Below are positions 18,001-21,000 of a stretch of 35,556 nt of DNA, piece after piece; within the stretch, counting starts at the first letter, position 1, and each line of letters opens with the position of its first letter. This DNA comes from Candidatus Sumerlaeales bacterium (GTDB lineage: Bacteria > Sumerlaeota > Sumerlaeia > Sumerlaeales > Sumerlaeaceae), in NCBI GenBank assembly GCA_038243585.1, contig JBBSQY010000036.1:1-35556 (forward strand), written 5' to 3'. Made by a program: the position numbers.

Positions 18001-21000
18001 GCTTCAAAACTGATAATCGATACCAGAAACGCCATGAAGAACGTTCCCACTAACGCCCAGGTCGTTCTACTGTAAAAGTCTGACAGCGCGGTACCAGAAT
18101 GTCCATAACACAGGTGCACACGTGCGAAATAACGGGTTTGTACCGAACTTGAAGTTGATGCCCTGGCGGATTATAATTAATTGAAACGATTTCACAAGGT
18201 GCCTCCGCCGTAGTCTGCAATCCAGGCAAATCTGTTACTTCTTCGCCCTTGCATTCGCTTAATGCCATGCACAGTTAGTGAACTTGTGACAATGCATACC
18301 GCTCTGGAAAGACTGGAAAATCCACGATGAATAACGAAACCCGTAAACTCATGAAACTGCTCCACCTTGGAGCCGACGAAATCTACCACGTCTTTTGTCT
18401 GGCCCTGTGCATGGCCTACCTGGATGGACGTGTCTCCGACGAAGAAGGGGAAATTCTAACCCGCATCGGCTTCGGTCTCGGCCTGACACCAGAAGATATA
18501 TCCGCCTTGGGCGAAAACGCCAAATCCGCAGTAGCCGAAACCAGCCCCGGCGACGTAATCGCCTTCTCCATCGCCAGCTTGAAGGCAAAACTGGATAAGG
18601 AACAACTCCAGGGAGTGCGGCAGATATTGCAGTTTGTTGCCGTCAGCGATGACGCCATAGATTCTTCTGAACAGGACCTCCTGTCTCTGCTGGACGAAAT
18701 TTGGGATTCCGCTGATTAGGCAGGCGTCTCCTGGGGACGCCGGCGTAAACCGGCAAAGAAGTAGCATAGGCGTCTCGCCTACGTGAGTGCAAGGGTGCTT
18801 AGCGGCGTAAAAGGGAATTTCAAAGAGCGTTGCGGAGACGATAATTTATACAGTGTATGAATAGGGAGCGACGTGCGGTCTGGGTTTCGGACGGCTCGGC
18901 GAGCCATCCCTACCCGAAACTGGTTTAGAATCTGCGGGTTCTGTTTTTTATGGATATGATGGGGCCTATTGGTTTTTCGCTGGCGCGGATCATTTCTATG
19001 CAGCTGGCGAGGGCGTCGAGGCCGTCGTCGTGGTTTGAGCGGCTTCCGTTGTATTCGTCGGCCTGGATGTAGAATTCCTGTTTGAGGTCTTGCTGGAAAA
19101 GGATACTTCCGGCGATGATATGGGGCTCGAGCAGGCTGATGCGGCTGTGTTTGCTGTGGTGGTTGTTGTGTTTTTCAATGGGGAGATGCCAGTGGTCTCC
19201 GGCGGTTTTCATGCGGGTTTGTTCATCTCGGATAAAGGTGCCGAGGGTTTCCTGGAAGCCGTTGCATTCGAAGCCAAACTTTTCGTATTTGTATTTCTGG
19301 TGGAGGGCGAAGACCTGGGTGACTTGTTTCATGGGAGAGGCTTTTTCCATCCAGACGTCCATGACGTAGAGGGTGTTGTCGGGGGCTTTGCCTACGGTGA
19401 CGATGGCGGCGTAGTCGCCGTCGCGGGTGGTGGCTTTTCCCATAGCGGGGTCGAGGAAGCCGTAGTATTTTAGCTGGTCTTTGTGGTGGCGGGGTGTGTT
19501 GGAATTACGAATTACTAATTCCGAATTACTAATGGTGGTGTCGCTGCGCGACGATGATTTGGATGACTGGCAGGAATGTTTATCCCACGATTGGCTGTCT
19601 GGATTTTCTTCCAGGGTGAGGCCTCTGGTTATGGGTTGGATGTGGCCGTCGGGGCTGATGAAGCGGGACCACATGCTTGTGTCAAAGATCTGGTCACCGT
19701 CTTTTATGGGGGAGTTCATTTTCTCTTTGAAGAAGGCGGAGCGGCCGAGGGTGAGGAGCTTTTCCTGGAGTTTGACGTAGGGTTCTTTTGAGGGCCAGAA
19801 GACTTCTACGCCTTCCATCATGGGAGTTTGGTTTTCGGCGAAGTAGGCTTCGGCGGTTTCGACGTTGTCGGGGTCGGAGCGGTCGGTGAAGAGGCGCTGC
19901 CAGGTGCGCCAGAGATCGGGGCGGCTGTCCCAGGCGGTGATGGATTTGTAGAGCTGGGATTTGTAGCCGGGGCGGTTGAGGAGGGTGCTGAGGAGGCTGT
20001 CGGTGTGGAGGATCGTGCCGACGATAGTGATGTGGGTGTAGCTGTCGCCGAGGTTCTCTACGGTTTCGTCGTACCATTGGAGTAGTTTAATTCGAAGGTA
20101 TGACGTGGTGGAATGCCGGGACTGCTCGACGTCGTCGAGGATGATGCGGGTGGGGCGGAATTCCCCGTGGCTGACGCCGCGCATTTCGCTGGCGGCACTG
20201 TAGGCTTCGATTCGGCAGTTGCCGATTTCGATGTAGCGGGTGTTGGACTTAAATTTGGGGACGCGGCCGCCGAAGAAGGTGTCGCGGATTTTGGGATTTG
20301 TGCGGAGTTCGCGGGCAATGGTGGCGAGGCGGTTTTTCGCCTGCTGCATAGTGCCGCTGATGATGACCTGGTGGCGCTCGCGGCCGGAGAGGATGTCGAT
20401 GATGGGAAACAGAAGCGGGTGGATGGTGGACTTGGCTGCGCCGCGGGGCGCAGCGACGGCGAGGCGACGTCCGGTGCGGACGGGCAGCGGGTGCGCGTGC
20501 TGCTTCAGGTATTGCTCAAAGCTGAACAGGTGCATATCGTTAAAGTCGTTGCGGCAGTGATGGCCGAGGAAATCGCGGAAGAACTGGGCAGGGTCGGACG
20601 TGAGCCGCGCGATCGTGTCGGCGGAAATGGTGGGTTCGGTTGGTGCGGGTGCGGTAGTGGCCGAAGTGTCGGAAGCAGCTGCGGAGTGGTTTTTATCGTT
20701 CATAGTGATGCGGTTATTAGCGAACGATTATGGGCTGGGTATTCCCGCACGGGTACTTAAGTGGAAAAATTACGAATTACAAATTGTGGTGCGGCTTCGC
20801 CGCGATGATTGGATGGGCTGGTATATCTCGCACCTTCGGCGCTTATAAAACATTAATATACAATGGCTTATTGTAGCGAAGGGCTATGGTGCACACTGTG
20901 GGCTATGGCAGAAACTGTGCAAGCGGCCCAGAGCTACGCTCTGGGCCGCTTGGAAATATTTCACAGGGTTGTCAGGTTTTCAGGGCTTCGACTTCTACGC

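Follow-up and report, generated by a model that had tools for sequence, protein, structure and literature searches.

Why does a complete gene for a phage large terminase (terL) stand alone among host genes on a Sumerlaeota chromosome, and is it an element that moves itself or a working part of a phage-derived machinery kept by the host? The gene lies in a window of 35,556 nucleotides (the whole stretch of DNA analysed, contig C36 of a Candidatus Sumerlaeales genome, G000). Its product matches the PHROG family phrog_38 "terminase large subunit" (E 3.9e-76, residues 23-582) and scores 42.7 bits against TIGR01630 (cut-off 41.65) as well as 67.5 bits against the NCBIfam model termin_lrg_T7 (NF033889), which is under the 150-bit cut-off of the latter. 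The lack of a Pfam family at E<=0.01 and of a matching PADLOC model, both reported before, was reproduced when the two scans were repeated; PF17289 is present in the TerL of relatives. Residue conservation was read from an alignment of 34 TerL family members, in all of which A85, P86, R87, G88, A90 and K91 of the Walker A motif, D190, D191 and E193 of the Walker B motif, and D418, D430, E479, H558, D559, D560, D563 and A564 of the nuclease are invariant. The N- and C-terminal tails change fast in the expanded terL family. The AlphaFold2 model (mean pLDDT 85.8, below 50 across residues 361-400) has the TerL of PhiV-1 as its top Foldseek match (8dgc_E, E 6e-20) and also matches the TerLs of HK97 and T4 (gp17); the ATPase domain matches those of T4 gp17 and P74-26, while the nuclease domain matches the terminase nuclease domains of P22, RB49, HCMV and HSV. 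The resolvase Ydc2 is also among the Foldseek matches of the model. Searched by sequence against solved structures, the single TerL had no match and the family profile one weak match, again 8dgc_E (E 0.005). The C36 gene is a true TerL, as indicated by the phrog_38 match, the invariant sets of catalytic motifs and the two-domain fold, and the survey's finding of an intact large-terminase gene with ATPase and nuclease motifs stands.

The gene had also been described as solitary between a terB gene and an ABC-F gene, which is borne out by the window: among the 30 other ORFs scanned there is no match to a phage family, 29 belong to cellular families and one (23556-24935) matches no family. No phage gene is present within 18 kb of terL, which has host genes on both sides, and a search of the terL locus against Rfam gave nothing over threshold. 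Since the terL unit lies downstream of the perfect hairpin that follows the ABC-F stop codon, this hairpin bounds the 5' end of the unit from outside (Table 1). The core of the REP-like element yields 124 strand hits (about 62 sites) in the genome, none of them near the other six terL pieces described below, so that the REP-like repeats reported to flank terL are present at the C36 copy but not at the others.

Table 1. Features of the terL locus (window positions) and genes of the head module on contig C67.
Feature	Location	Strand	Basis or remark
terB-like flanking host gene	18327..18719	+	PF05099 E 9.6e-10; adjacent to ABC-F in G002
Terminator-like hairpin 3' of terL	18765..18783	-	
REP-like palindromic element right after the terL stop codon	18871..18922	.	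Outside the duplicated unit; many genome-wide copies
terL, large terminase (TerL) paralogue	18925..20703	-	Intact 592-aa ORF
TerL ATPase domain (~residues 28-358), disordered linker (361-400), nuclease domain (~412-576)			AF2 and Foldseek
Last nuclease motif, codons of residues 558-565 HDDGLDAL	19009..19032	-	Family alignment
First nuclease acidic motif, codons of residues 415-422 GFLDPAMG	19438..19461	-	D418 in a strand of the nuclease domain (AF2)
Second copy of the 54-nt repeat, in frame, in the disordered linker (residues ~378-400)	19503..19570	-	Repeat comparison
Walker B / catalytic glutamate, codons of residues 186-193 RIILDDVE	20125..20148	-	Family alignment
Walker A, codons of residues 85-93 APRGAAKST	20425..20451	-	Family alignment
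23-nt box TTAAGTACCCGTGCGGGAATACC, 34 nt before the ATG, candidate promoter/operator	20738..20760	-	5' ends in G000 and G002
54-nt upstream repeat: small hairpin and GTAATTN iterations	20768..20821	-	In the conserved 5' region of the unit (family D1)
Perfect 15-bp hairpin after the ABC-F stop	20920..20952	.	Outer limit for the 5' end of the terL unit
ABC-F ATPase flanking host gene	20972..22951	-	PF00005 and PF12848; NF000355 417.6 bits
Portal	C67 head module		PF06074 E 4.7e-92 (Mu type)
Protease	C67 head module		phrog_976 E 2e-39
Cement protein	C67 head module		PF09956
Major capsid protein	C67 head module		phrog_1005 E 3.9e-76

A tblastn search of the contigs of G000 placed terL at seven sites; the six reported before were recovered, and a seventh (C34:3-215) was added. 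Only the C36 gene is whole. C-terminal pieces lie at C27:1-534, C65:14326-14655, C4:4-267 and C51:2-250, in agreement with the at least four further copies claimed for the ends of these contigs, and N-terminal pieces at C29:2-496 and C34. Each of the six partial pieces is located at a contig end and has unrelated core genes as neighbours, with cellular genes within ~300-550 nt, and four C-terminal and two N-terminal pieces together with the whole gene at C36 amount to at least five loci. Pairwise identity among the C-terminal pieces is 88-96%, matching the upper but not the lower end of the earlier range of 90-96%, and in blastn they reach 82-85% identity to C36, much as stated before (82-86%). 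The extra pieces could have been contributed by other strains or another organism, with a true copy number of one or two, as would fit a second related organism in the bin (stretches of large contigs recur at 70-92% identity in the small contigs C68-C99), a contamination of 3.61% and the contig-end position of every extra piece. However, six of the seven terL contigs are 22-114 kb long and C65 measures 14.7 kb, none being among the mostly duplicated small contigs; downstream of the four C-terminal pieces the flanks all differ, as do the core genes in them; the independent assembly G002 has three terL places as well; and breaks inside a repeat of this similarity (88-96%) are expected from short-read assembly, which together make such an artefact extremely unlikely. 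In the likely source run (X1) the summed depth of Logan contigs, which is not a copy number, was 28-189 per bin for terL and mostly ~7-33 in the flank bins, with one ABC-F bin at 157. A contig of this run joining 19486 to 20768 was set aside as too weak, its 30-nt side most likely being the linker repeat of another copy.

The copies have common limits at both ends. Their similarity stops within ~3 nt of the stop codon, as the survey had it, and random segmental duplication followed by decay does not readily account for so sharp a 3' boundary, which is seen in five copies. On the other side the similarity extends ~110-215 nt upstream of the ATG, so that what is shared is more than the single gene assumed before. 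The 5' architecture is kept in all five known terL 5' regions from two species, and the 23-nt box stands before every one of these terL 5' ends, three in G000 and two in G002, with a variant of it before both terL paralogues of G008. None of the 24 other loci scanned outside G002 and G008 carries the box upstream of terL, and when <=2 mismatches were allowed a single possible site turned up in G031, ~350 nt upstream of terL. In both G000 and G002 the box also stands ahead of the single portal gene (core at G000:C67:6421 and G002:C374:4152). Exact matches to the 13-nt core of the box number 19 in G000, compared with 0-1 for 20 shuffled patterns; about 31 of 38 core hits carry the box, and most of these head a ~400-nt non-coding element. 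These elements form a dispersed family of ~15 and have only the 23-nt box, not the ends of the unit, in common with terL. Seven of the box-led elements gave nothing over threshold in Rfam, and the consensus fold of six ~400-nt copies is weak (-10.95 kcal/mol, 3 of 26 pairs compensatory). The box also leads a gene whose product contains a peptidoglycan-binding domain and weakly matches an endolysin; the box is not specific to head genes and may be a general or a mobile promoter. A box-led protein of 212 aa was considered as a small terminase and rejected (no PHROG match; genus-restricted, in 2 of 41 genomes).

The unit could instead be a passive passenger, spread in trans by the Y1 (HUH) transposases of this genome, by recombination between repeats or by mobility of a promoter cassette, with selection keeping the copies. 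Transposition of the IS200/IS605 type proceeds without inverted repeats and without target duplications, and G000 has seven Y1_Tnp (IS200-like) places, one of them beside the head module and one in an island at the site equivalent to G002:C137. The 54-nt repeat is present in more than 40 copies in G002 and is inserted in frame in the C36 linker, where it is 76% identical to the upstream copy at 20768-20821 over 54 nt and 87% identical to the upstream copy of C29 over 60 nt (E 7.5e-14); the dispersal of the box with non-coding elements points the same way. Indeed, the terL copies resemble IS200/IS605 elements and their derivatives (PATEs, REPINs) in being dispersed without inverted repeats or target duplications, and in a setting where Y1 transposase genes and REP-like hairpins abound. 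They differ from them in that the unit encodes a terminase instead of an HUH enzyme, in the age and individual constraint of the copies, and in lacking a conserved 3' hairpin, no subterminal one being found at the 3' ends of the five copies. Furthermore, a REP element lies beside only one of the seven terL pieces, the non-coding elements do not share the ends of the unit, and for six of the seven pieces the flanking sequence available contains no Y1 gene; the Y1 gene of C65 has an internal stop and lies ~11 kb from the terL piece. Passive spread therefore appears rather unlikely.

Comparison between species shows where the units sit in relatives. In G002:C310 terB and the ABC-F gene are convergent and ~110-180 bp apart without a terL, confirming the terL-free site reported from a same-genus genome, and on a contig from run X4, which belongs to a relative, terB and ABC-F are separated by 482 nt. 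Both the C36 and the C27 site are empty in G002, and conversely the terL sites G002:C137 and G002:C63 have no terL in G000, where the equivalent of the former is taken up by an AbiD gene (PADLOC E 1.1e-71) together with a fragment of a Y1 transposase. A site without terL was thus found in all four informative between-species comparisons, in which exact junctions are not alignable to the empty sites, identity to the relatives being only 70-84%. The claim of polymorphism between close genomes holds as to the differing sites but not as to closeness, the genomes being those of same-genus species whose flanking DNA is just 70-79% identical. Not one terL locus is common to G000 and G002, the oldest lineage included, which shows more turnover than a host gene family would need if it were purely stable; in two of three same-genus comparisons, synteny extends to either side of terL. 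Pairing of N- and C-terminal pieces by synteny failed, since neither G001 nor G002 offered an informative match next to the flanks of C29 and C34, and metagenome contigs scanned with the TerL protein yielded three loci (best 47% identity), none informative on junctions. Dispersal of terL as a one-gene unit, with sites differing between species, is supported.

The copies themselves are old, not recent, and in their assembled parts under strong purifying selection. The four C-terminal pieces show dS of 0.17-0.56 with dN/dS of 0.06-0.10, C36 against C27 gives 0.25, and 15 of 16 pairs fall between 0.06 and 0.43, the sixteenth (C29 against G002 C137) reaching 0.55; these ratios were calculated from terL only, not from the head genes, and rest on just 83-178 codons, the assembly lacking the middle of the extra copies. 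The six partial pieces, 2118 nt in total, contain no stop and no frameshift. Of 75 Sumerlaeota genomes, 64 encode TerL at E<=1e-10 (38 of the 43 of good quality), mostly as one full-length copy; G000 has seven terL places, G002 three and G008 two, and paralogues occur only in this genus and one sister genus. In trees TerL groups by host family, with 100/100 support for the clade of the genus and 99/97 for the G008 pair as each other's sisters, and nothing points to horizontal spread. Vertical inheritance of the gene and its retention across the phylum follow from its presence in these 64 of 75 genomes and from the trees. As had been noted, it co-occurs with the portal module: of 41 relatives 31 have both TerL and the Mu-type portal, five neither, three TerL only and two the portal only. 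The head module of G000 (C67:6496-10532) comprises portal, protease, cement protein and major capsid protein; no Phage_Mu_F was found. Genes for a tail, for head completion or for a small terminase were not identified either, no systematic search for them having been made. One portal thus faces at least five TerLs in G000.

The survey had read the gene as a single-gene element that moves by means of its own terminase. Such a self-mobile unit, moving or copying itself with its ATPase-nuclease as transposition enzyme, would account for one-gene units that lie dispersed in at least five copies and agree in their 5' and 3' limits, for the terL-free sites in four of four informative comparisons and in the run X4 contig, and for paralogues that arose repeatedly and independently in one clade. 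An RNase H-like fold is common to terminase nucleases, DDE transposases and RuvC, and is found in the nuclease here, with Ydc2 as one Foldseek match. However, the repeat search confirms that terminal inverted repeats and flanking direct repeats are absent at C36, as noted before; the five 3' ends share no hairpin or conserved structure, their junctions are unlike each other and have no common target motif, and TerL is the only ORF in the unit, which encodes no transposase of a known class. With dS of 0.17-0.56 and dN/dS of 0.06-0.10 all copies are readable, none near-identical and none decayed; horizontal spread has left no sign, most genomes carry a single copy, synteny persists in two of three same-genus comparisons, and the regulatory box is common to the unit and the portal gene. 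A search for a MuA-type transposase (PF02914) gave no match here or in its control genomes and so says nothing on whether one is present. We know of no description of strand transfer by a terminase, and among the papers listed none describes, by title or abstract, a stand-alone terminase acting as a mobile element. Lacking defined ends and horizontal spread and consisting of old, constrained copies, the unit is very unlikely to be self-mobile, and an autonomous promoter-plus-terL element, whose terminase would cut or copy its own gene and insert it without terminal repeats, is just as improbable. If true, this reading would add a new class to the transposable elements of prokaryotes, one that originated in a packaging enzyme of the Mu type. 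A milder version, equally conjectural, would make the dispersed units cis-acting start sites for packaging as well, from each of which a different part of the chromosome would enter the host's capsids.

The differing sites could also reflect an anti-phage or satellite role, in which the extra TerLs, seated in variable regions in the manner of defence genes, are decoy or hijacking terminases acting against infecting phages or exploiting them. Presence and absence of terL indeed vary between species, the AbiD gene and Y1 fragment occupy the equivalent of the G002:C137 site in G000, and the family is expanded with fast-changing tails. By contrast, no PADLOC model matches TerL, the other visible flanks hold ordinary metabolic or envelope genes, the copies carry the regulatory box of the portal, and all catalytic residues of a working packaging enzyme are kept, so that we consider this role quite unlikely.

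The explanation we favour, with slightly more than even confidence, is that the gene is a working TerL paralogue of a vertically inherited, phage-derived head and packaging set of the Mu type, amplified as a compact unit. This corresponds to the alternative that the survey had named, a terminase family amplified for a domesticated head module, for which the box shared with the portal, the co-occurrence and the purifying selection argue. In this genus, terL would have been duplicated several times, each time as a compact unit of a ~110-215 nt regulatory region (small hairpin, GTAATTN iterations and, ~32 nt ahead of the ATG, box TAAGnnCCCGTGCGGGAAT) plus the ORF up to its stop codon, landing between unrelated host genes, and purifying selection would have kept each copy. 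We see the dispersal as rare, old duplication-insertion events rather than ongoing self-transposition. Each copy is probably co-regulated with the single portal gene via the common box, and TerL, as its predicted function suggests, would act as an ATP-driven DNA translocase and nuclease docking on portal-bearing procapsids. Such procapsids would derive from the capsid module of the host itself, in the manner of a gene-transfer-agent-like particle, and the additional paralogues may serve dosage or a different partner or DNA specificity.

The nearest phage matches are the TerLs of Pseudomonas phage H70, Haemophilus phage SuMu, Mannheimia phage vB_MhM_3927AP2 and Mushuvirus mushu, which we take to be Mu-like (26-29% identity, over 83-93% of the length); they share the two-domain ATPase and nuclease fold and a partner portal of the Mu type (PF06074), but the C36 gene lies outside any prophage and is multi-copy. 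To our knowledge, domesticated phage head and packaging sets are found in few lineages, with the terminase a single gene in the cases known, and no described gene transfer agent is known to us to have five or more dispersed terminase copies. Among the papers listed by a literature search none, by title or abstract, deals with terminases in Sumerlaeota. The gene transfer agent RcGTA of Rhodobacter capsulatus reportedly has a scattered gene set (PMC5026251). The Sumerlaeota set resembles it in host-kept phage head and packaging genes that are vertically inherited, under purifying selection, spread over several loci and apparently under common regulation, whereas it differs in being known from genes alone and in head genes of the Mu-type lineage. 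Most of the genomes sampled from this uncultured phylum carry a Mu-type set, and in one genus only the motor-nuclease gene has been multiplied, each copy being a self-contained, regulated unit elsewhere on the chromosome. The family thereby offers a test case for how a gene and its promoter are copied around a chromosome without recognisable transposon ends, and for what several packaging enzymes do with one portal.

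The terL gene of contig C36 in G000, the genome under study, is an uninterrupted reading frame for a large terminase. Residues 23-582 of its product match phrog_38 'terminase large subunit' in PHROG (E 3.9e-76); the protein narrowly passes the cut-off of TIGR01630 and falls below that of the T7-type equivalog NF033889 (67.5 bits vs a cut-off of 150), while a Pfam search gave no family at E<=0.01 and no PADLOC model matches. The Walker A lysine K91, the Walker B/Glu residues D190, D191 and E193, and the nuclease acidic residues D418, D430, E479, D559, D560 and D563 are invariant in a family alignment of 34 members. 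The AlphaFold2 model from this alignment (mean pLDDT 85.8) predicts ATPase and nuclease domains joined by a disordered linker (residues 361-400), and its top Foldseek matches in the PDB are large terminases, headed by PhiV-1 (8dgc_E, E 6e-20) and followed by HK97, T4 gp17, D6E and Sf6. Among phage terminases the closest reach 26-29% identity and come from Mu-like phages. Among the 30 other ORFs scanned in the window, 29 match ordinary cellular families, one (23556-24935) is without any match and none matches a phage family; terL has no phage gene within ~18 kb to one side and ~15 kb to the other. Taken together, reading frame, motifs, model and neighbours therefore establish the C36 gene as intact and solitary, in agreement with the survey's finding of a complete 592-aa large terminase between terB and an ABC-F gene.

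A tblastn search of the whole G000 assembly (99 contigs, 89.7% complete, 3.6% contamination) located terL at seven places, the whole gene on C36 and six pieces, all cut by contig ends. The visible flanks are cellular genes, unrelated between contigs, which bears out the earlier report of at least four further copies beside unrelated genes. Over 83-110 codons the four 3′ pieces share 88-96% identity among themselves, and blastn puts them at 82-85% against C36 (reported before: 90-96% and 82-86%). Similarity had been said to end at the stop codon; this holds, since it stops within ~3 nt of it and the downstream flanks are unrelated. On the 5′ side it extends upstream of the ATG, by ~215 nt for the pair C29 and C34 and by ~110 nt for C36 and C29. 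The bin includes a second related organism (most of the small contigs C68-C99 repeat stretches of large contigs and are 70-92% identical to them), which could make the extra copies an artefact of assembly or binning. However, terL lies on six contigs of 22-114 kb and on C65 (14.7 kb), none of which belongs to the small, mostly duplicated set. We therefore accept that one genome has at least five loci, an artefact has an almost negligible probability, and the dispersed solitary terL copies are a real observation.

Coordinates of terL, its pieces and related features in G000 (C-numbers are contigs)
Feature	Location	Strand	Remarks
terL ORF	C36:18925-20703	-	592 codons
TerB-domain gene	C36:18327-18719	+	terL flank
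ABC-F gene	C36:20972-22951	-	terL flank
54-60-nt repeat	C36:19503-19570		within terL
54-60-nt repeat	C36:20768-20821		upstream of terL
C-terminal terL piece	C27:1-534		flank: MBOAT
C-terminal terL piece	C65:14326-14655		flanks: PIG-L, TspO
C-terminal terL piece	C4:4-267		flanks: SulP, P-type ATPase
C-terminal terL piece	C51:2-250		flanks: Golvesin/fn3, GH2
N-terminal terL piece	C29:2-496		flank: BNR
N-terminal terL piece	C34:3-215		flank: NAGPA
Phage head cluster	C67:6496-10532		four genes
Mu-type portal	C67 head cluster		PF06074, E 4.7e-92
Maturation protease	C67 head cluster		phrog_976
Cement protein	C67 head cluster		PF09956
Major head protein	C67 head cluster		phrog_1005, E 3.9e-76
Box core before portal	C67:6421
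Y1 transposase	C67:11482-12060		directly beside head module
Peptidoglycan-binding protein gene	C27:40283-41167	-	294 aa
Box-led paralogue	C8:2270-3077		212 aa
Box-led paralogue	C31:17916-19121		376 aa
~400-nt element	C15:48850-49256	-
~400-nt element	C47:12370-12790	+
~400-nt element	C33:11132	-
~400-nt element	C66:2553	-
~400-nt element	C41:20513	+
~400-nt element	C52:1206	+
~400-nt element	C8:87909	-
~400-nt element	C20:26490	+

Paralogues of terL are restricted to one clade, with seven places in G000, three in G002 of the same genus and two in G008 of the sister genus. In the TerL tree the copies of the genus form a clade with 100/100 support, inside which G002_C1/C63 branch off first and G002_C137 is then placed as sister to the G000 copies as a whole (98/97); the G008 pair are mutual sisters (99/97). 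Duplication has therefore occurred in several independent rounds. Pairwise comparison gives dS 0.17-0.56 and dN/dS 0.06-0.10 for the four G000 3′ pieces, dS 0.74 and dN/dS 0.25 for C36 vs C27, and dS 0.18 and dN/dS 0.32 for the 5′ pieces of C29 and C34, figures that cover end pieces, since only the ends of the extra copies are assembled. No stops or frameshifts occur in the pieces over 2118 nt in all, and, given also the dS values, the copies are neither recent nor decaying.

All four informative comparisons of terL sites between species differ. In G002 (C310) terB and the ABC-F gene are convergent and separated by ~110-180 bp with a hairpin, confirming the empty site reported for the same genus. 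In a closer relative, on a 3.9-kb contig in run X4 (flanks 81-84% identical), the gap is 482 nt, too short for terL, and in G001 (same genus, 81% complete) the ABC-F gene has a different neighbour and the genome yielded no terL. At the C27 site G002 (C107) has another ORF, ending ~107 nt ahead of the MBOAT gene, and the terL-free counterpart in the second organism of the bin (C68) has a cupredoxin-like gene and an antiporter instead. The terL site of G002 C137 corresponds to C4:36.5-39.4 kb of G000, which is occupied by AbiD and TPR genes and by a Y1 transposase fragment; the abortive-infection gene and the transposase fragment lie at C4:36868-38795. The G000 counterpart (C14) of the G002 C63 site is likewise without terL. 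Exact junctions are unreadable because the flanking DNA of the compared species is only 70-79% identical. Elsewhere in the phylum, both terL flanks are syntenic in two of three same-genus comparisons (g10, g16) and one flank in the third (g2); between genera they are not syntenic within 1.5 kb.

Ordinary segmental duplication does not account for the sharp limits of the unit (5′ regulatory region plus ORF) or for the site turnover, so that self-mobilisation and passive mobilisation stay candidates. The search at C36 found neither inverted nor direct repeats bounding the unit, as had been noted before, the five terL 3′ ends have no hairpin or target motif in common, and the unit encodes no known transposase. 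With no bounding repeats, and with the dS and dN/dS of the 3′ pieces, the proposal of a single-gene element moving by its own terminase is not supported, and a self-mobilising unit is very improbable. Passive mobilisation in trans is made possible by the seven places with Y1 (IS200-like) transposases in G000, but no ends that these could use were found at the unit, and it is rather unlikely. The flanks had also been described as REP-rich: a REP-like palindrome (core GGATGGCTCGCCGAGCCGTCC) does follow the C36 stop, but it is a genome-wide element (~62 sites) and absent near the other six pieces. The Y1 transposases are possibly RAYTs.

Named homologues put G000 in Sumerlaeota / BRC1. Across Sumerlaeota, the family profile detects terL in 64 of 75 genomes at E<=1e-10 (38 of the 43 good-quality ones), nearly always as one full-length copy, and in TerL trees the sequences cluster according to host family. 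In family f10 (all four genomes sampled) and in one genome of f13, terL is read as two ORFs, breaking in the linker between ATPase and nuclease parts (loci L012, L016, L023, L026 and L030 in G039, G021, G027, G031 and G033, respectively), some with a single in-frame stop and one in a complete genome (G021); this could reflect a conserved split, recoding or decay. The head cluster of G000 occurs once, with cellular genes and an IS200-like Y1 transposase as its neighbours. Of the 41 relatives compared, TerL and portal are both present in 31, both absent in five, and found as TerL only in three and portal only in two; as these genomes are MAGs and kin, the counts are purely descriptive. Two complete genomes, G007 and G021, have terL far from the portal. 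In G001 the portal matches as two pieces on contigs C29 and C90; its terL/portal system may be decaying or lost, or the assembly may merely be fragmented. That the terL copies play a defence or satellite role is decidedly unlikely.

One 5′ architecture is common to all five known terL 5′ regions (C36, C29, C34, and C137 and C1 of G002), consisting of a small hairpin, 2-5 iterations of GTAATTN or CATAATT, a box, CT(T/a)AGnnnCCGTGCGGGAAT(A/T)CC, and ~32 nt before the ATG. The 13-nt box core has 19 exact occurrences in G000, or 38 if one mismatch is allowed, against 0-1 and 1-15, respectively, for 20 shuffled patterns. It precedes the portal gene in G000 and, letter-for-letter as before terL, lies ~200 nt ahead of the portal match in G002 (C374:4152); a variant precedes both G008 paralogues. 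Furthermore, it precedes a peptidoglycan-binding, weakly endolysin-like gene and two paralogous genus-specific proteins. The box may be a shared promoter or operator. It is not specific, since most occurrences head a ~400-nt non-coding dispersed element of ~15 copies. These elements start with the terL-type box TTAAGnnCCCrTGCGGGAAT, often with a REP element ahead, and have the conserved cores CCAGCACCCACGGGC and CCCATATAGGAATCC; they show no Rfam match and no conserved reading frame, and support for a consensus structure is weak. The endolysin-like protein (PF01471; weak phrog_1493 match, E 1e-4) stands behind a perfect 23-nt box; its gene is a lysis candidate for the particle system. The paralogues on C8 and C31, in which no Pfam or PHROG families were found, may be further parts of the terL regulon; the C8 gene also carries the 54-nt repeat, as in the terL upstream architecture, and has both flanks in common with a short cassette at C21:943. 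This 54-60-nt repeat (hairpin plus GTAATTN iterations), which also lies in frame in the disordered interdomain linker of TerL and encodes ~20 residues there, has ~6 copies in G000, five of them at terL genes, vs >40 in G002.

On balance we lean, with some reserve, towards a lineage-specific amplification, in which the domesticated Mu-type terminase of the phylum would have multiplied in one lineage as self-contained regulated units. Selection would retain the copies, and their distribution and the shared upstream box would link them to the head module. Among the papers listed in literature searches, none describes, by title or abstract, an orphan, solitary, stand-alone or multi-copy domesticated terminase element. 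Packaging by Mu-type terminases begins at sites within integrated copies, and many phages have their pac sites in terminase genes. By analogy, and as speculation, the dispersed terL units might also serve to initiate packaging at places around the chromosome.
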